DNA from: Candidatus Kerfeldbacteria bacterium
GTDB lineage: Bacteria; Patescibacteriota; Patescibacteriia; UBA9570; XYC2-FULL-38-9
Reading direction: 5' to 3'
DNA length: 64,000 bases
Assembly: GCA_016182555.1 (NCBI GenBank)
Contig: JACPGJ010000008.1
Coordinates: 455,411 to 519,410, forward strand
Made by a program: the position numbers and the translations under genes. Positions 11,336 through 56,848 of the stretch are shown in pieces. The stretch's first letter is position 1, and every line of letters begins with the position of its first letter. The notes beneath the pieces were generated by a model, which had not been told where the DNA came from, ran no database searches, and worked only from the letters and a program-made list of their open reading frames with translations.

Positions 11336-11838
11336 TTATAAAAATGAAAATACTCCTAAGGTGATTGCTGTGGCAATAACGCCCGCAAACAGAATACCGC
11401 CAAATAACATAGGAAAAGCTTTATGAAATGGGATGCCAAATAACCATGCCGCGAGTGCGCCACTCCACATGCCAGAACCGGGCAGTGGCAATGGAATAGC
11501 CACAAAAAACAACAAGGCTGCATTGCCCCATTTTTCATGTTTCGCATAAAAATCTTTACGCGTTTTTTCAAACAGCCAGGTAAAAAATCTGTTCATGATT
11601 TTTGAATGTCGGCGTAAGATATTAGCAATCGGTTCAATGAATAATAAAATCGCGATTCCCGGCACTAAGCTACCGCTCACGGCGAGCAGATAGACTTTCC
11701 ACCACGGTAAGTGCCACCCGCCAATACCGGCAGGAATAGCCGCACTCAATTCCAATGACGGTAACATGGCAATCAAAAAAACAGCCAACTCATGTGGAAT
11801 TGTCGCAAATGTTTCTAACGGGTTAATTCCAAGCATAA
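11336..11838 (-). CDS. small integral membrane protein (PLPGSG...WSG motif; small-multidrug-export-like family)
   Basis: ORF 11336..12001 trimmed to the internal Met (MLGINPLETF) to limit overlap with the upstream gene; several TMs; AIPLPLPGSGMWSGALAAWLFGIP. Confidence 0.5.
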
Positions 11839-12782
11839 TGTAAAAATGTCCATTCAATGATCTGTTTTGCGGTAGTAAACCGACCTTCTTCTGTTGGCGC
11901 ACCAAGCACGACAACAATGACATCGCGTTCGCTGTGTGGTTCACGTACTTCGACCACCACGCAGTAGCCAGCTTCATCTGTATAGCCTGTTTTTCCACCA
12001 ACGATGTTCAGATCTGTATCATATAATAATTTATCGGTGGTGTATACGGTAATCGGCTGGTGCGTATCTTCGATTTCTTGAGCGTGTTTGGTCATACTGG
12101 CTGGCACTTGAATTTCGGGTTTACTGAAGGCTTCTCGGGCAAGCAAGGCAATATCGAACGGGGTGGAAATGTTCCCTTTGTACAAGCCCGTGGGATCGAC
12201 AAATGTCGTATGTTCCATACTCAGTGCCTGAGCTTTGTGATTCATGGCAGCGACAAATTCGTCTTCGCTGAGTCTACTGCTGTGTGCCAGTGCGAGCGCC
12301 GTGTCATTATATGAAGCCACCAGGCTTGAGCGGAGTACATTGAACGTCGTCAGTTGTGCGCCATAAGGCAGATTCAATTCCTTCCCCCCAGGTGTATCAT
12401 CTTCTGGAGCGAATGTGTGAATATGATTTAACCCATCAGCAGGTTTATGATCAAGCCACACCAATGCGGTCATGAGTTTGGTAATGGAAGCAATAGACAC
12501 TTCGGCGTCTGGATTTTTTTGCCATAATACTTGTTGTGTTGCGGCGTCCATCACCACGCTACTGCGCGCATCAATTTCCGGACCGTGATCGTCATCAATT
12601 TTTTTTGGTGGAAGAAATGTCGTGTCAACCGCTGGCATCAACCGCCATTCAAACGCGTTCGCCTCTTCAGACGTGGTTGTTGGCACAATCACAAAATGCT
12701 CTGCCTGCGTCATCGCTTCCGGCAATGGCAGTTTGGCTAATTGAGTAATAATAGCAATACTCAGTAAAAAATTGGTGAGCAT
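11823..12782 (-). CDS. D-alanyl-D-alanine carboxypeptidase (serine peptidase S11/PBP fold)
   Basis: 319-aa ORF with signal peptide; SxxK (ASITK), SxN (SYN) and KTG (GGKTGYT) motifs. Confidence 0.75.
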   Translation of the reverse strand: MLTNFLLSIAIITQLAKLPLPEAMTQAEHFVIVPTTTSEEANAFEWRLMPAVDTTFLPPKKIDDDHGPEIDARSSVVMDAATQQVLWQKNPDAEVSIASITKLMTALVWLDHKPADGLNHIHTFAPEDDTPGGKELNLPYGAQLTTFNVLRSSLVASYNDTALALAHSSRLSEDEFVAAMNHKAQALSMEHTTFVDPTGLYKGNISTPFDIALLAREAFSKPEIQVPASMTKHAQEIEDTHQPITVYTTDKLLYDTDLNIVGGKTGYTDEAGYCVVVEVREPHSERDVIVVVLGAPTEEGRFTTAKQIIEWTFLHYAWN

Positions 12783-29674: not shown

Positions 29675-29865
29675 ATCGTTTTCCCTTGAAACTATTAATA
29701 AATGAATCGAATAATAGTGTACCAACTCTTGGGCAATGAGTCAAGCGCTGGTGGTTGCCATTTGACCAGGTAGTGACTGTGGATAACTATCTTGACCAAA
29801 TAGCCGAGTTTCAGTATAGTTTCGCAACTCTTGGGTTCAAATTCCTGTTTTTTTACTGTTTCCGA

Positions 29866-38602: not shown

Positions 38603-38935
38603 TTAAAATGTTTCATTACATTTTTTACATTGGCGGTGTTTTTGCCGCGTCCCATCTTCTCCAACCGTCAACTGGTATGCAACACGGGTCGGCTTGCTAC
38701 ATTTTGGGCATACCAATGCCACTTTCGAAATGTGAATTGGAGCAAAAAAATCTAACCGTTGACCTTTTTCATCACGCCGTTGTGATTTCAGGTGACGAAT
38801 CGTTTTATTCACACCGTCTACCACAATCTTTTGTAAACTTGGAAACACTTGAGATACCGTACCGGTTTTTCCTGCATCTTTCCCGCGTAATATTTTGACT
38901 GTATCTCCAGTTTTGATTTTTAACTGTGTGTTCAT
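38603..38935 (-). CDS. rplX: 50S ribosomal protein L24 with C-terminal zinc ribbon
   Basis: KIKTGDTVKILRGKDAGKTG KOW motif; C-terminal CPKC...CKKC. Confidence 0.9.
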   Translation of the reverse strand: MNTQLKIKTGDTVKILRGKDAGKTGTVSQVFPSLQKIVVDGVNKTIRHLKSQRRDEKGQRLDFFAPIHISKVALVCPKCSKPTRVAYQLTVGEDGTRQKHRQCKKCNETF

Positions 38936-38940
38936 AAGCG

Positions 38941-39309
38941 TTATAATACTTCAGGAGCTAAAGAAGCAATTTTGGCAAAACCACGTTGTTTCACCTCTCG
39001 GGCGATCGGACCAAAAATACGTGTTCCTTTTGGTTCATTATTTTTTTCCACAATTACGCAGGCATTTTCGCTAAAACGAATGTAGGTTCCGTCTGGGCGG
39101 CGCATTTCTTTCGCTTGTCGAACAATCACCGCGCGCACGACATCTCCTTTTTTCACCATGCCATGCGGCTGCGCTTGTTTGACTGCACAAATAATCACAT
39201 CACCAACACGGGCATACCGTGGGCGGAAACCACCAAGAATACGGAAGCATTCCACTTGTTGGGCTCCGGTATTATCAGCAACTTGTAACCATGTTTCTAC
39301 TTGAATCAT
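38941..39309 (-). CDS. rplN: 50S ribosomal protein L14
   Basis: [16 protein letters not shown]. Confidence 0.95.
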
Positions 39310-44643: not shown

Positions 44644-45024
44644 TTATAACATCTTCATTTCGATGTCAACCCCTGCTGGCAAACTCAAGTTTGAGAGCGC
44701 ATCAATCGTCTTTGGATTGGCACTGACAATGTCGATCAATCGCTTGTGCACCCGCATTTCAAACTGGTCACGGGCGTCTTTACGAATGAACGTGGATTTC
44801 AAAACCGTATACTTTTTCTTTTCTGTTGGAAGAGGGACTGGACCAACCACGCTCGCACCGGTGCGGACCACCGTTTCGATAATAATTTTGGTTGTTTTAT
44901 CGATAATTTTATTATCGTAGGCACGAATTTTCACACGAATACGCGCAGAAACTGGTGCCTGCTCTTCGGTGTTGTTGATCTGTTCTGTGGTCTTTGTTGC
45001 TGACATGTTGGTATAAAAGAGCAT
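44644..45024 (-). CDS. rpsJ: 30S ribosomal protein S10
   Basis: IRVKIRAYDNKIIDKTT; start may be the internal Met at 45006. Confidence 0.9.
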   Translation of the reverse strand: MLFYTNMSATKTTEQINNTEEQAPVSARIRVKIRAYDNKIIDKTTKIIIETVVRTGASVVGPVPLPTEKKKYTVLKSTFIRKDARDQFEMRVHKRLIDIVSANPKTIDALSNLSLPAGVDIEMKML

Positions 45025-45038
45025 TCGTCTCGTACATC

Positions 45039-45081
45039 TCTCGGGGCCCAGGCCCTCCTAGCCGTATCCAGAGCCCCGAGA
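45039..45081 (-). promoter_or_regulatory. GC-rich hairpin in the tuf-rpsJ intergenic leader
   Basis: tctcggggc ... gccccgaga 9-bp stem with 25-nt loop; no T-run; positioned like an S10-operon leader structure. Confidence 0.35.
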
Positions 45082-45095
45082 ATATGACGACGATA

Positions 45096-46286
45096 TTATG
45101 CAATAATCTTAGTTATCACTCCTGCGCCAACGGTTCGGCCACCCTCACGGATAGCAAAGCGTTGTTTTTCTTCCATAGCGACCGTCTTTCCAAGTTTGAC
45201 AGTAAAGGTAATCGTATCGCCAGGCATGACCATTTCGGTGCCTTCTTTCAATATCACCTCACCAGTCACATCAGTTGTACGCATATAGAATTGTGGCTTG
45301 TATCCTTTCGTGAATGGCGTAGCGCGTCCACCTTCTTCTTTAGAAAGAATATAGACTTCAGCTTCAAATTCCGTGTGTGGGGTAATGCTACCTGGTTTTG
45401 CGAGCACTTGACCACGTTCTACTTCATCTTTCTTTGTACCACGAAGCAATAACCCAGCATTGTCACCAGCCAAACCTTCATCTAACTGCTTGTTAAACAT
45501 TTCAATACCAGTCACAACAGTCTTTTTGGTGTCCATCAAACCAACAATCTCTAATTCTTCGTTAATTTTTACCTTACCGCGTTCAATACGACCAGTCACC
45601 ACCGTTCCACGACCTTCAATAGAGAAGATGTCTTCAATAGGCATCAAGAATGGCTTGTCGGTATCCCGTTCTGGTTGAGGGATATATTCATCCAACGTTT
45701 TCAACAATTCCACAATCGGCTTCGCTGCTTCTGCATCTGTTGGGTTTTCCAACGCTTTCAAGGCTGAACCACGAATAATAGGTGTTTCATCGCCAGGGAA
45801 TTCGTATTTATTGAGCAAGTCGCGAATTTCCACTTCAACCAACATCAACAATTCTTCATCTTCGACTTGGTCACATTTGTTCAAGAATACCACAATCGAA
45901 GGCACACCAACCTGACGAGCCAACAAAATATGTTCGCGTGTTTGAGGCATTGGGCCGTCTGTTGCAGAAACAACCAAAATCGCGCCGTCCATTTGAGCCG
46001 CACCAGTGATCATGTTCTTCACGTAGTCAGCATGTCCTGGACAGTCAACGTGTGCGTAGTGACGGTTATCCGTTTCGTATTCAACGTGGGAGGTATTAAT
46101 GGTAATACCACGCTCGCGTTCTTCTGGAGCGTTATCAATATCTGCAAATCCTTTGTTTTGAGCGGATTTTCCTTGAGCGTTACAGACCGCCAAAATAGCG
46201 GCTGTAGTTGTGGTTTTTCCATGGTCGACGTGACCAATGGTACCAACGTTGACGTGCGGTTTGGCGCGATTAAACTTGTCTGCCAT
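45096..46286 (-). CDS. tuf: elongation factor Tu
   Basis: 396 aa; [21 protein letters not shown]. Confidence 0.97.
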
Positions 46287-49550: not shown

Positions 49551-51689
49551 TTATTCTTCGTCTTCAGTGGCGACTGAACCTCCACGCGCTTCAATCACTT
49601 CTTTGGCCACATTCTTTGGCACTTCAGCATATTTCTCGAATTCCATGGAATAGTTTGCACGACCTTGAGACATCGAACGAAGGCTGGTCGCATAACCAAA
49701 CATTTCGGCCAATGGGACTAAGGCACGCACAACTTTCACAGTTCCGCGGTCGGTCATTTCCTGAATTTGTCCACGTTTAGAATTGATATCGCCCATCACA
49801 TCACCCATGAACTGTTCGGGAGTCATCACTTCTACTTTCATAATCGGTTCCAACAATACTGGGTCGGCTTTACGTGCCGCATTACGGAACGCTTTTGAAC
49901 CCGCAATTTTGAACGCCGCTTCTGAAGAGTCGACTTCATGGTACGAACCATCAAGCAAGGTGACGCGAATATCTAACAATGGATAGCCAGCCAAAATACC
50001 GCGATCCAGTGCTTCACGAATACCTTTTTCAACAGCAGGAATGTATTCATTTGGAATAGATGCTCCTTTAATCGCATTCTTGAATTCAAAATGTTCAACC
50101 TCTTCACCCTCTTCCACTTCGCTCTCCAACACCTGTAATGGTTCAACTTTCAATACAACATGACCATATTGACCGCGACCACCAGTCTGTTTCACATACT
50201 TCTCTTCTCCTTCTGCGGAGCGTTTAATCGTTTCTTTATAAGCCACCTGTGGTTTACCGGCAGTGGCTTCCACCCCAAATTCGCGCTTCATGCGTTCAAT
50301 AATCACTTCCAAATGCAGTTCACCCATACCAGCCAAAATAGTTTGATTGGTTTCTTCGTCTGAACGCACACGCAAGGATGGGTCTTCATCTGTCAGGCGC
50401 GCGATAGCCATACCCATTTTTTCTTGGTCAGCTTTAGTTTTCGGTTCAATGGCAATAGAGATCACCGGTTCTGGTGCGATAATTGGTTCCAAAATAATTG
50501 GATGATCTTCATCGCATAATGTGGTGCCAGTTTTTGCATCTTTCACACCGACTGCTGCGGCGATATCACCGGCATGAATTTCACTAATTTCTTCACGAGA
50601 ATTTGCATGCAAACGTACCAAACGCGAGATGCGTTCTTTTTTACCTGTCGCCATGTTGAGCACATACGAACCCGATTTCAATACGCCGGAATAGACGCGA
50701 ATGAAAATGAGTTTGCCCACAAATGGATCTGAAGCAATTTTGAAAGCAAGTGCTGCCAATGGTTCGCCATCTTCTGGTTTACGAGAAATTTTTTGTTCTA
50801 AATCGTCTGGGTCTGAACCAACCGTTGGTGGAATGTCGAGTGGAGATGGCAAATACGCAACCACCGCATCCAACATAAACTGCACGCCTTTGTTTTTGAG
50901 CGCTGAACCGCAGAGTACTGGAACAACGTTGTTTGCAATCACGGCTTGGCGCAATACTCGGTGAATATCTGCTTCAGATGGTTCATTGCCTTCCAAGTAC
51001 GCGTTCATGAGCGCTTCATCATTTTCGACAATCGCTTCAATGAGCTGTGTGCGGTACATGGCTGCGCGTTCTTTTTCTTCTGCCGGAATGTCTACTTCTT
51101 CAAATTCACGACCCATTTCATCTTTATAGATCACGGCTTTTTGACGAATGAGATCGATGATGCCTTGGAATGTATCAGCCGCACCAATAGGCAGCTGAAT
51201 TGGATGCGCGTTTTTGGTGAGCCGGTCATGGATCATCCCCAAATCTTTGTAGAAATCTGCACCTGTGCGATCCATTTTGTTAATAAAACACATGCGAGGA
51301 ACTTTGTATTCTTCTGCATAATGCCAGTTAGTTTCGGATTGCGGTTCCACACCGGCAACACCGTCGAATACCACCACCGCGCCGTCGAGCACGCGCAGAG
51401 AACGCTTCACTTCTACGGTAAAGTCGATGTGGCCAGGAGTATCGATGAGGTTGATTTTATGCTCTTTCCAAAAACAGGTGGTCGCTGCAGCGGTAATGGT
51501 GATACCACGTTCTTGTTCCTGTTCCATCCAGTCCATGGTTGCTTCACCTTCATGCACTTCACCAATTTTGTGAGTCTTGCCGGTGTAATACAACACCCGT
51601 TCAGACACCGTCGTTTTTCCGGCGTCGATGTGTGCAATGATACCGATGTTCCGCGTATCTTGTAATGGATATACTTTTTCTTCAGACAT
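49551..51689 (-). CDS. fusA: elongation factor G
   Basis: 712 aa; [17 protein letters not shown]. Confidence 0.97.
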
Positions 51690-52845: not shown

Positions 52846-53094
52846 ATGGGTACAGAAATATTTCCAAAAATTCTTTTCTTCATTCAATTTGTGGTTGGCA
52901 CCATCGGTGTGGTCACATTGCTCACTGTGCTGATTTCATTTATCAGCCTGCTGCGTCACCGTAACGATAAAAAAATGATCACCCAAATGCGTGAACAAAT
53001 TGTGAGCGGTTTGATCGCGTTTATTATTATTCTCATTGTTTACGTGCTCTTCAGCGGCATTGGTCCAGCATTTCGTGTCCTCTTTTCAAAGTAG
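52846..53094 (+). CDS. small two-TM membrane protein
   Basis: 82-aa hydrophobic ORF; no motif recognised. Confidence 0.35.
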   Translation: MGTEIFPKILFFIQFVVGTIGVVTLLTVLISFISLLRHRNDKKMITQMREQIVSGLIAFIIILIVYVLFSGIGPAFRVLFSK

Positions 53095-53114
53095 CGCGAC
53101 GTGTAAAACTGGTG

Positions 53115-53741
53115 TTAGAAAATAAGTTGCAACGTCAGGTTATAGAAAAATTCGAAGAGACTGGCGATAAATCGGTCGCCAAAAAAAACGAGGGCGAGCA
53201 ACAACCACATGCCATAGCGTTCGAGGAACAGCACAATGTCTGGGCGTTTGTGGCCAATAAATGTATAAAGCAGTTTAGCACCATCGAGTGGTGGAATGGG
53301 AATGAGGTTAAACACCGCCAACAAAATATTCACTTGAATCAAAATAATAAAGAACACAATCATTAAATTATCTGGCGCGAAATCGCCAAAACGGTAAATG
53401 ATACTAAGGGCGGTGCCGATAACAACCACCACAAGGGTGTTAGCAATTGGCCCAGCCAGCGCCACCAGCGCCGGACCAAACCGTTTATATTTCAAGTTAT
53501 ATGGGTTAAATGGGGTTGGTTTTGCCCAACCAAACCCAGCAACCACCAGTAAGAAAAAACCCAACCAGTCAATGTGCGCTAACGGGTTTAATGTGAGACG
53601 ACCTTCATATTCTGCGGTTTTGTCTCCTTGCAAACGACCAGCAAAGGCGTGGGAAAATTCATGAATCGTCAGCGCAAGGATCACCGCCATCACCCATAAG
53701 ACAAAATAGATTGGCCGTTCTAATAAATCATTAATAAGCAT
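53115..53741 (-). CDS. site-2 protease family metalloprotease (peptidase M50)
   Basis: 208 aa; HEFSHA zinc motif and FNLIPIPPLDG (LDG motif). Confidence 0.7.
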   Translation of the reverse strand: MLINDLLERPIYFVLWVMAVILALTIHEFSHAFAGRLQGDKTAEYEGRLTLNPLAHIDWLGFFLLVVAGFGWAKPTPFNPYNLKYKRFGPALVALAGPIANTLVVVVIGTALSIIYRFGDFAPDNLMIVFFIILIQVNILLAVFNLIPIPPLDGAKLLYTFIGHKRPDIVLFLERYGMWLLLALVFFGDRFIASLFEFFYNLTLQLIF

Positions 53742-53838
53742 AAAACGTGAATGTGAATTGACAAATTTTTTAACCGTCGCTATAATCTGAAAACTGCTGA
53801 AGAAGTATCAACCTTCATTATTACGATAATATCTGCTT

Positions 53839-54015
53839 ATGTCAAAAGTCTGTGATATCTGCGAACGCGGATACTTAAAAGGGAATTCACGCTCTCACTC
53901 TAATATTGCGACTATCAAGCGCCAACAGGTGAACTTGCAAAGCGCAACCATCGAAGGCAAACGAGTGAAAGCCTGCACCCGCTGCATCCGCACCGTCGCC
54001 AAAAACGCTCAATAA
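53839..54015 (+). CDS. rpmB: 50S ribosomal protein L28 (58 aa, below ORF-track cutoff)
   Basis: MSKVCDICERGYLKGNSRSHSNIATIKRQQVNLQSATIEGKRVKACTRCIRTVAKNAQ; L28 pattern; followed by an intrinsic terminator. Confidence 0.8.
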   Translation: MSKVCDICERGYLKGNSRSHSNIATIKRQQVNLQSATIEGKRVKACTRCIRTVAKNAQ

Positions 54016-54020
54016 AAATA

Positions 54021-54050
54021 CCCGCTCTCTGTAGCGGGAATTTTTTTATT
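54021..54050 (+). terminator. rho-independent terminator after rpmB
   Basis: cccgc-tctctgta-gcggg followed by aaTTTTTTTaTTTT. Confidence 0.65.
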
Positions 54051-54210
54051 TTCGATTTTGATTTTCATAAAATGAAGAGACGGCGCTAGAAAGTTATCCA
54101 CAGTCGAATTTATCTCTATCCTTAGCTAAAAATGATATTCGGCGAAAAATAGACGGCTGCACTTAGCCAATAACATAGTGGACTTTTTGCTATATCCGCG
54201 CATATACTCT

Positions 54211-54347
54211 ATGTACCGCTCTCAACCCGGACACGACAACGAATCCTGGTTTGTACATCTACTATTGAATCCCGCCAGTTACTGAGAGCGTCGGTTGAAC
54301 TGTTGTGCGTTTGTGCAGCAAATACAAACCGACGCTTTCTCTTTTTT
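54211..54347 (+). promoter_or_regulatory. candidate attenuator leader: 24-codon ORF plus alternative antiterminator/terminator hairpins
   Basis: cgctctca (54217-54224) can pair with tgagagcg (54283-54290), or gagagcgtcggtt can pair with aaccgacgctttctc followed by TTTTTT (54284-54347); mini-ORF MYRSQPGHDNESWFVHLLLNPASY ends at a TGA inside the switch segment. Confidence 0.35.
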
Positions 54348-54392
54348 CTTCATTTCTATATACTAAGTATAATCTACTAATAATACGTTTTT

Positions 54393-55982
54393 ATGAAAAG
54401 AAAAAATATTATCTCCTTTTGTGCCATATTGAGCATTATAGGATTACTATCCGCGTACTATCTTTACACCAGCAAGGGTTGTGGAGTATCTTCAAAAATA
54501 TGTATCGAGTCTCAACGTATAAGTATACAAATTGATATTCACAAAATTGGAAACAATGGAGTAGTAACATTTGGTGTTGGTTTAACAGATAATACCGGTA
54601 CTCGATTAACAGGAACAGAACGCGATTTTCATGAACAATGGAATTTTGGTGATGAAACATCACAACCAATTCAAGAGGCCCATGCTGATGGAGCTTTGCC
54701 CACATACGAAGCAAGCTACGAAAAAAAATATAGATATACAAAACCCGGAACATATACTGCATACATGCAAATGTTAGATGCAGAAAATGAAGTGCTGCGA
54801 AAATCAAATACTATTACCGTCACAATTCCGGAATCTTCATTCACTACAGCAGCGGAAACGACAACAGACGCTACAGATAGCGCAACACAACCAGAAGAGC
54901 AACGCGGTACACTCTTCTATGCCACAAATACAAAAAAACAACTCCTTATTTCTACCTATAACCCTGATACACAAGAGACACCAACTACCCAAACCATCCC
55001 GTTTGAAGAACAGATAAACCAAACCGGTAGAAATTCTTCCGGTGGAAACGATGCGGTTCAATTCAACCCCACAACACAGGAAATATTTATTTCTACACAA
55101 GGCAAAAGTGAATCAGCCTTTGAAAATTGCATAAATACAGATGGAACCTGCACCTCGCGTATATACAAAATCACTGCCAACAGCACAACACCAACTATTC
55201 TGTACGAATCAGAAAATCCACCAATCAATTGGGTAGTCAACCCTTATGATGATTCGTTGCTACTCAGTTCAACCGTTGAGGGAAAACAGATACTCACAAA
55301 ATTGAATGCGCAAGATGGTTCGGTGGTGTTTACTCAGGAATATATTATTCCCAAAAATACTGGTCTTAAAAATCTTGTGCTCAGCAATGATGGGAAAATA
55401 CTCTACCAAGCTTCGATAGAATCAGAAGATGGAAAAGCAATCAACGAAACTCTCCGTTTACGTGAATTTGATACCACAACCGGCGAGCTTACAGAAGTAG
55501 AAATATTTCAATTCAACTCAATTGACGCAACAACCACTATTTCTCCTAATAACAAATGGATTGCATTTTATGTAAACGCCTACGAAGCGCCACAATTAGT
55601 CATATGGGAGATTAAGGGGAAACAACCGCCTTCAATAAATCCATATCCATACACATCAAAAACAACGGGAGAAATTAGTAATTTCAATCTTTCCTGGTCT
55701 GGTGACAGCAAACGTCTATTCTACATGCGTGCTGATGGTTTAGTGTATTTCGACACCACAACCGGAACACATTCATTTGTCACAACAAGTAAAGAACGCA
55801 GAGAAACGCCATTCGTGTTAGAAGCAACGGGCGCCGAATCAGAAAACTATGTCTTCTATGTTTCTTCTGTAGACAGAACCATTGTACTGTACAACACCGC
55901 AATAGGAAAATATATCACCACGCCATTTTCTATGGTGCAAGATAATGAATCAGTGAATATTAACGGAGTCGCCTGGTATTAA
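54393..55982 (+). CDS. membrane-anchored extracellular protein with N-terminal PKD-like domain
   Basis: 529 aa; N-terminal TM; WNFGDETSQ...YTKPGTYTAYMQMLD PKD-like motif; long Thr/Asn-rich C-terminal region. Confidence 0.7.
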   Translation: MKRKNIISFCAILSIIGLLSAYYLYTSKGCGVSSKICIESQRISIQIDIHKIGNNGVVTFGVGLTDNTGTRLTGTERDFHEQWNFGDETSQPIQEAHADGALPTYEASYEKKYRYTKPGTYTAYMQMLDAENEVLRKSNTITVTIPESSFTTAAETTTDATDSATQPEEQRGTLFYATNTKKQLLISTYNPDTQETPTTQTIPFEEQINQTGRNSSGGNDAVQFNPTTQEIFISTQGKSESAFENCINTDGTCTSRIYKITANSTTPTILYESENPPINWVVNPYDDSLLLSSTVEGKQILTKLNAQDGSVVFTQEYIIPKNTGLKNLVLSNDGKILYQASIESEDGKAINETLRLREFDTTTGELTEVEIFQFNSIDATTTISPNNKWIAFYVNAYEAPQLVIWEIKGKQPPSINPYPYTSKTTGEISNFNLSWSGDSKRLFYMRADGLVYFDTTTGTHSFVTTSKERRETPFVLEATGAESENYVFYVSSVDRTIVLYNTAIGKYITTPFSMVQDNESVNINGVAWY

Positions 55983-55998
55983 AATCGACAACTATTGA

Positions 55999-56346
55999 TT
56001 GAGAAAATGTATGAAAAATAAAAAATGGTTTAAGGTTCTTGTTGTATTTGTAATCATTATTGTTATTATAGCGATTATTATTTTTTTAGGATTTCAAAAA
56101 CATACGCTGAACACTACAGTGCTCTCTTGCACTGAAAAAAATCTCGTAACAACAACAGGAAAATATCGCTTTCCACCGCAGTGGGGATTAGAAGGATACA
56201 AAATTCTTGTTCATCCTCAACCAGGAGGAATGTTTGATGCGATTTATCCAAATCAAATATGTAATAGTGAATCAAATTTCGTTCATGAAATCATCGCTAT
56301 AGAATACACGGGGTTGGGTTATATTACAGCGATTTACGTTCGTTAA
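55999..56346 (+). CDS. small membrane-anchored hypothetical protein
   Basis: 115 aa; N-terminal TM (VLVVFVIIIVIIAIIIFLGF). Confidence 0.45.
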   Translation: MRKCMKNKKWFKVLVVFVIIIVIIAIIIFLGFQKHTLNTTVLSCTEKNLVTTTGKYRFPPQWGLEGYKILVHPQPGGMFDAIYPNQICNSESNFVHEIIAIEYTGLGYITAIYVR

Positions 56347-56368
56347 TTTTTATGGGGTATTTGAATTT

Positions 56369-56827
56369 ATGAAAATGAAAATTGTATCCACGATAGGTTC
56401 GATATTTATCATCATCGCTCTACTACTCTCTTACTATTTATATACTGGCAGAAGCTGCGGTGTATCTTCAAAAATATGTATAGAATCACGAAAAATAAGT
56501 GTGGGTACGAGTGTGGAAAGAATTGGAAAAAATGGAAAAGTGATCTTTAATATCGGCTTAATAGATAATACCCGCACATATGACATTGACATGCAACTAC
56601 GTGATGAATGGAATTTTGGTGATGAGAATTCTACAACGCAATTAAGCGAGGAAGTACATACCGGTAGAATGATGCCAGATTATTTAATTGCCAGCTATAC
56701 AAAAGAATATACCTACACCAAGCCAGGAACATATACCGTTTTATTGAAAATCATTGATGCTACACACCACACAACATACACAGCAGAACCACTGAGCGTT
56801 ACGATTCCCGAATCTGCATTCAAGTAA
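56369..56827 (+). CDS. PKD-like domain protein, paralog of the N-terminus of 54393..55982
   Basis: 152 aa; aligns to the first ~150 aa of the upstream gene (LLSxYYLYTxxxCGVSSKICIESxxIS...WNFGDE...YTKPGTYTV...TIPES). Confidence 0.65.
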   Translation: MKMKIVSTIGSIFIIIALLLSYYLYTGRSCGVSSKICIESRKISVGTSVERIGKNGKVIFNIGLIDNTRTYDIDMQLRDEWNFGDENSTTQLSEEVHTGRMMPDYLIASYTKEYTYTKPGTYTVLLKIIDATHHTTYTAEPLSVTIPESAFK

Positions 56828-56848
56828 AAAAGCTGAACACTAAAATAT

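Follow-up and report, generated by a model that had tools for sequence, protein, structure and literature searches.

What is a hairpin with all the marks of a transcription terminator doing just ahead of a gene, rather than directly behind one? The locus that raises this question lies in a 64-kb window (the window is the whole stretch of DNA analysed, and positions count from its first nucleotide). The first-pass annotation had read the region as a leader with mutually exclusive antiterminator and terminator hairpins, compatible with control by a ribosome translating a short open reading frame. The setting is a str/S10/spc ribosomal-protein region in which S12, EF-Tu and S10 are identified; a 154-aa ORF adjoining S12 appears S7-like by sequence, and a 712-aa ORF (49551-51689) is presumably EF-G by its placement. 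The gene upstream is rpmB, which encodes the 58-aa ribosomal protein L28 on the plus strand (53839-54015; PF00830, E = 1.5e-11) and has orthologues of 78-85% identity in relatives. Top matches of the adjoining M50 peptidase come from MAGs that carry the label Candidatus Kerfeldbacteria or that of other Patescibacteria; identity is 61-71% for species-representative genomes and reaches 80% for a single metagenome contig. On its 3' side rpmB has an intrinsic terminator of its own at 54021-54047 on the plus strand: a 6-nt loop on a 6-bp stem, five pairs of which are G-C, followed by the tail AATTTTTTTA. It appears bidirectional because of an A-run on its 5' side. The downstream gene (54393-55982, plus strand) encodes a 529-aa protein with a predicted signal/anchor sequence; the product carries a hydrophobic segment at its N-terminus and, in Pfam, matches PKD weakly and also PD40/beta-propeller. 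The spacer between the rpmB terminator, which ends near 54047, and this gene is ~345 nt long, and not the ~170 nt that had been given for it.

The prominent feature of the spacer is a two-tier hairpin of 56 nt at 54284-54339 on the plus strand, identified by its fold energy and by a census of all hairpins next to a U-rich run, taken over both strands of the 64-kb window. The basal stem (54284-54296 paired with 54327-54339) comprises 13 bp, 12 of them Watson-Crick and one G·U. The upper stem (54301-54308 paired with 54313-54320) comprises 8 bp, of which three are G·U, and is closed by a GUUU loop; an internal loop of 4/6 nt separates the two. The U-rich tail TCTTTTTTCTT is read directly from the sequence at 54340-54350 and, as UCUUUUUUCUU, stands immediately 3' of the 13-bp stem. 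The coordinates previously given for this stem and its terminal T-run (54284-54347) hold; what had been taken for the terminator's loop is indeed a stretch of ~30 nt, but one that contains the inner 8-bp hairpin. The hairpin folds with an energy of -30.6 kcal/mol, against -14.4 ± 2.7 kcal/mol in dinucleotide shuffles (z = -6.1; 0 of 200 shuffles equal it), and it ranks second among all the hairpin-plus-U-tail sites of the census. Its reverse complement reaches only -22.7 kcal/mol, 8 kcal/mol weaker, and is not followed by a U-tail; on the minus strand the four G·U pairs turn into A·C mismatches. The G·U pairs and the weaker minus-strand fold thus establish the structure as a feature of plus-strand RNA.

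The terminator half of the earlier interpretation, a strong strand-specific hairpin with a U-tail upstream of the gene, is accordingly the half that has stood. The hairpin is almost certainly an intrinsic (Rho-independent) terminator, as its predicted fold and tail have it; that it would terminate transcription in vivo, and do so constitutively, we infer. With canonical Rho-independent terminators it shares a G+C-rich stem whose base abuts a U-rich tract, great stability and a single direction. It differs from them in its length of 56 nt, its two tiers and its 4/6-nt internal loop, and also in its location: it is attached to no recognisable gene, but stands 268 nt beyond the terminator of the preceding gene, rpmB. 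On its other side, the hairpin is 53 nt from the 529-aa gene and the U-tract 42 nt from the ATG.

Two other hairpins in the window deserve mention in their own right. The strongest hairpin with a U-run is at 45022-45095 on the minus strand (-31 kcal/mol), between tuf (45096-46286) and rpsJ (called at 44644-45024). Because the Pfam S10 match begins only at residue 30 of the called ORF, rpsJ probably starts further downstream, which would place the hairpin between the genes, either as the terminator of tuf or as an S10 operon leader. Another strong orphan hairpin with a U/A-rich tail (11650-11723, minus strand, -25.5 kcal/mol) occupies part of the 251 nt that separate the genes at 11823-12782 and 11356-11571, ~100 nt after the one and ~80 nt before the next, an arrangement that resembles the placement of the 54284 hairpin.

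Comparison with relatives places the element in DNA that is peculiar to this lineage. The 2.8 kb at 54048-56848, between rpmB and a convergent gene for an Fe/Mn superoxide dismutase (SOD), holds the leader region, the 529-aa gene, a 115-aa ORF whose product is membrane-anchored, and a 152-aa ORF; the last of these also matches PKD domains and looks, by eye, similar to the N-terminus of the 529-aa protein. The G+C content of this stretch is 0.32-0.41, compared with 0.44-0.48 in its flanks. In the three closest relatives that have both genes (L083, at 80% M50 identity; L002 and L085, at 68%) the order orf82-M50-rpmB is conserved, and rpmB is directly convergent on the SOD gene with a single shared terminator. 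Since rpmB abuts SOD in all three, the element belongs to an inserted island of lower G+C. In other relatives the sequence 3' of the rpmB terminator is unrelated. Homologues of the 529-aa protein are few, three among 5.8 billion proteins (38-50% identity); in the two that come with contigs (L081 and L082) the upstream regions are unrelated to the leader discussed here, and one homologue follows an HTH gene after a gap of 23 nt. On the sequence evidence, the island has most likely been acquired recently.

The leader is equally solitary as DNA and as RNA. Sensitive blastn and nhmmer searches with 54016-54392 against 80 and then 162 related loci gave chance matches only; an exact 25-mer from the hairpin is absent from metagenome contigs and a stem-based gapped pattern from viral contigs; distant blastn of the region against phage records returned nothing; and a single-sequence covariance model of the element run over 526 kb recovered only the element itself. 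A scan of 53000-56000 with Rfam 15, at E up to 10, returned terminator-like noise around the rpmB terminator and an frnS match over the hairpin that, at 19 bits, is counted as noise. Laxer filters applied to 54150-54400 returned nothing, and at the gathering thresholds of Rfam 15 the whole window yields three tRNAs only. The Rfam scan that had been suggested for a riboswitch, leader or small RNA thus finds no relevant family even at E up to 10. The paired segments of the leader are not conserved in relatives either, but this reflects a region missing altogether from all the relatives found and not one that is there in diverged form. With nothing homologous found in which covariation might appear, the comparison speaks neither for nor against attenuation.

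What, then, is the terminator for? The reading that we prefer, at a probability of about 40%, is that the element is an unconditional terminator that insulates the 2.8-kb island from the strongly promoted rpmB gene. The rpmB promoter, at 53758-53786 on the plus strand, is a perfect sigma-70 consensus (TTGACA, a 17-nt spacer and TATAAT; 12/12 matches) and a likely source of strong transcription towards the leader region; with a terminator as modest as the 6-bp hairpin behind it, rpmB would deliver read-through polymerase to the island. Polymerase arriving in this way, or started at weak local sites, would meet the hairpin and U-tract at 54284-54350 and be released there, and that release would insulate the downstream surface-protein gene. 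Expression of the 529-aa gene would be low and would come either from the weak -10 element at 54368-54373, a start position that we infer, or from residual read-through. The 8-bp helix and the 24-codon ORF that had suggested regulation would then be incidental, although the ORF may alternatively be the 3' remnant of a gene formerly located ahead of the terminator.

Four observations pull against insulation, and the first concerns promoters. As judged by its sequence, this genome appears to use near-consensus sigma-70 promoters: those in the window that match at 11/12 positions or better are almost all intergenic and lie 35-140 nt 5' of gene starts. Against this norm, no promoter of at least 10/12 is found in 54048-54392, and so none between the terminator and the start codon, although the genome normally shows strong ones. 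The best that the region offers are two 9/12 sites, one on each side of the terminator. The upstream one is TGGACT, an 18-nt spacer and TATACT (54179-54208, plus strand). The downstream one is the TATAAT at 54368-54373, which is present after the terminator as had been stated, is perfect as a -10 element and ends 20 nt 5' of the start codon, with a best -35 match of 3/6. Sites of 9/12 quality are as common in shuffled sequence (11 found, 10.3 expected), and the TATAAT is weak evidence for a promoter because intergenic TATAAT (19 in 16 kb of strand) occurs at about the frequency that base composition predicts. The poor -35 of this site and the mere 42 nt from U-tract to ATG imply that the 529-aa gene may depend on transcription through the terminator. 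Second, an ORF that stops at the base of the stem is above chance expectation (p about 0.03-0.07). Third, the alternative helix is predicted to form with a probability above 0.9 in nascent transcripts. Fourth, a second terminator 268 nt past the first is odd for a simple back-up.

Two observations on the promoters of the window are set down here for themselves. Four intergenic 10/12 sigma-70 matches are orphans with no same-strand gene near (29792-29820 and 38920-38947 on the plus strand, 1845-1817 and 58725-58697 on the minus strand), and it is possible that they mark the starts of unannotated small RNAs or small ORFs. Some consensus promoters end 7 nt before a start codon (e.g., 22726-22697 and 6237-6209, minus strand), which suggests leaderless mRNAs.

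If insulation is not the whole purpose, the terminator may have a transcription unit of its own to end: a small RNA of ~135 nt from about 54215, or a tiny mRNA for a peptide of 24-35 aa. This alternative is possible, if doubtful. Its attraction is anatomical. Like intergenic sRNA genes with intrinsic terminators, the region runs, over ~135 nt and behind a promoter-like site, from a 5' hairpin through a linker to a strong terminator hairpin with a U-tail, and the whole stretch of 136 nt folds with z = -3.3. For the peptide version there is a 24-codon mini-ORF, MYRSQPGHDNESWFVHLLLNPASY followed by TGA, at 54211-54285 on the plus strand. Its ATG (54211-54213) and its stop codon (54283-54285), which falls within the segment shared by the two alternative pairings, are where the earlier reading of the sequence had put them, and its frame is open back to 54136, with a GTG at 54178 that would lengthen the peptide to 35 aa. 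The stop at the stem base is uncommon by chance: an ATG-initiated ORF of at least 24 codons ends there in 3.4% of shuffles, and in 7.2% if GTG and TTG starts are allowed, so the coincidence is a matter of 3-7%. The spacing from stop codon to terminator is also that of genes in this DNA, rpmB and the 712-aa gene at 49551-51689 being examples. The mini-ORF has no Shine-Dalgarno sequence, which is uninformative on its translation because such a motif precedes only 4 of the 72 gene starts called in the window; this genome seems to initiate translation largely independently of it, and the missing motif is no argument against a peptide.

The balance nevertheless tips the other way. The 9/12 promoter that would drive such a unit matches at chance frequency, whereas real promoters here are near consensus, and by its position RNA from 54179-54208 would begin near 54214-54216, past the ATG at 54211. 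By codon usage the mini-ORF ranks within the lowest 1% of real in-frame windows of the genome, below rpmB and the small neighbouring ORFs. No credible homologue of the mini-ORF is found among 1.84 billion representative proteins. For the RNA version, neither a family match nor any conserved homologue turns up in Rfam, among the 162 related loci or in the collections of metagenome and viral contigs.

It is unlikely, on present evidence, that the hairpin terminates conditionally within the 5' leader of the 529-aa gene, as the attenuator of the first-pass annotation would. The topology is correct for one. The pairing of cgctctc (54217-54223) with gagagcg (54284-54290) that had been pointed out is there at those positions and extends by one pair to 8 bp: fold prediction and an inverted-repeat search give a helix with a 5' arm, CGCUCUCA, at 54217-54224 (antiterminator or P1-like) and a 3' arm, UGAGAGCG, at 54283-54290, both on the plus strand, the 3' arm overlapping the stop codon of the mini-ORF and the first 7 nt of the terminator stem. 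A small hairpin is also predicted within the leader, at 54224-54251 on the plus strand. In truncated transcripts that lack the 3' arm of the terminator the alternative helix has a predicted probability above 0.9 for any assumed 5' end, and it is lost from the predicted fold once that arm is present. Antiterminator and terminator are therefore thermodynamically real alternatives in the nascent RNA. What the statistics do not show is that the pairing is more than accidental. With transcription starting at 54215, the interaction energy of the nascent 5' arm is -10.3 kcal/mol, against -8.6 ± 2.7 kcal/mol with shuffled upstream sequence (p = 0.26); with a start at 54180 it is -13.0 kcal/mol, against -9.1 ± 3.0 kcal/mol (p = 0.10). 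Perfect 8-nt inverted repeats number three in the 600-nt region, where ~2.7 are expected (600²/2/4⁸). The domain that the helix closes (about 74-80 nt) is marginally more stable than its shuffles, at z = -1.9. By shuffles and by 8-mer count alike, the alternative helix does not stand out from chance.

Two mechanisms could make use of such a helix or of the ORF beside it. In the translation-coupled version, which would be pyrBI-like, a ribosome finishing the mini-ORF covers 54284-54296 and blocks the terminator. The size of the ribosome footprint is well established, and by that geometry a ribosome terminating at the base of the stem would cover the whole of the 5' arm. The kinship with the leader-peptide attenuators (trp, his and leu, and pyrBI) is plain up to this point: a short ORF precedes the terminator, part of the stem can pair instead in an alternative helix, and the stop codon stands just where a ribosome would mask the 5' arm. 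It ends there. The only candidate for a run of regulatory codons in the mini-ORF is His-Leu-Leu-Leu, which does not amount to the codon runs of those systems, and the target is a surface protein and not a biosynthetic gene. Codons 3-5, at the beginning of the ORF, hold the antiterminator's 5' arm, which the logic of trp-type stalling would have 3' of a stall site. Chance-level pairing, the atypical codons of the ORF, and the lack of a protein homologue, of conservation and of an Rfam leader match leave ribosome-mediated attenuation, as it had been suggested, unsupported beyond its geometry.

The second version is controlled by a ligand or a protein: the helix 54217-54224/54283-54290 would be a P1-type antiterminator comparable to that of ON-type purine riboswitches. 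In transcriptional ON riboswitches such as the pbuE (ydhL) adenine riboswitch, the 3' strand of the P1 helix overlaps the 5' arm of the terminator, and stabilisation of P1 prevents termination. The helix considered here likewise closes a domain, and its 3' strand likewise overlaps the terminator's 5' arm. The domain differs from an aptamer in matching no riboswitch of Rfam 15, in its z of -1.9 and in having no homologues that would show a conserved core. Common to both versions is the argument from spacing, in that 42 nt, holding no strong promoter, separate the end of the terminator from the start codon, a spacing typical of attenuators and riboswitch expression platforms. Common to both are also the objections that the homologues of the 529-aa protein that come with contigs do not have such a leader and that the sole candidate promoter upstream is weak.

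The joint proposition that the region is a riboregulator specific to the lineage, be it a new attenuator or ON-type riboswitch in which 54217-54224/54283-54290 competes with the terminator, or a new sRNA of ~135 nt, strikes us as improbable. If it were true, the surface-protein island beside rpmB, which evolves rapidly, would be controlled or accompanied by this RNA.

More improbable again is that the element is a fossil: insertion or rearrangement of the island would have truncated a gene and left only its 3' end and its terminator, which would have no role now. All six frames of the leader are interrupted, the longest open one running for 49 codons (54136-54282) and stopping exactly at the terminator; this, the position at the boundary of the island, a G+C content below that of the flanking core genes and a weak similarity to a TPR protein speak for a fossil. 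A search of 1.84 billion representative proteins with the 49-codon frame gives two weak matches (E = 2.5e-4 and 6.7e-4), both to long proteins and both scattered over 5-6 stretches. On inspection, the better match is to a TPR-repeat protein, and its score depends on summing many repeats of the target. Pfam, at E up to 10, returns nothing for this frame or for the leader's other frames long enough to scan. With weak repeat-summed matches only and no Pfam family, a pseudogene remnant identifiable through the 49-aa frame was rejected. So was a decayed paralogue of the neighbouring 115-aa ORF, for which a likeness (QPG...ES.FVH) had been seen by eye: BLASTP gives no alignment and a DNA alignment shows nothing, and the two are unrelated. 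A two-tier hairpin of 21 bp that served no purpose would, besides, be expected to decay in a streamlined genome, yet this one is perfectly preserved.

A repeat, or a MITE- or REP-like element, can be dismissed: neither the 64-kb window nor the related loci contain a second copy, and 8-mer repeats are at chance level. Some internal likenesses may be recorded all the same. The 8-mer CCGCTCTC of the rpmB terminator (54022-54029) recurs in the leader at 54216-54223, and 54023-54038 of that terminator is 81% complementary over 16 nt to 54275-54290, which ends in the 5' arm of the hairpin; similarity of this kind between the rpmB terminator and the leader occurs at the frequency expected by chance for 8-mers in 600 nt. 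An A+T-rich inverted repeat of 17 nt and 88% complementarity (54056-54072 and 54389-54405) flanks the whole leader and spans the ATG of the 529-aa gene. It is probably a chance product, although the 5' end of a read-through transcript could pair by it with the region of the start codon.

We know of no native regulatory RNA of the Candidate Phyla Radiation that has been characterised experimentally. In a review (PMC11665869), riboswitches appear only as prospective engineering tools. If true, an attenuator or sRNA that precedes a gene for a surface protein would be a useful first example for the Candidate Phyla Radiation, and surface proteins of this kind are plausibly involved in attachment to a host. 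The evidence assembled here supports only something more ordinary: an unusually strong predicted intrinsic terminator at the boundary of a recently acquired island, in a lineage that works with canonical sigma-70 promoters and intrinsic terminators and almost without Shine-Dalgarno sequences.
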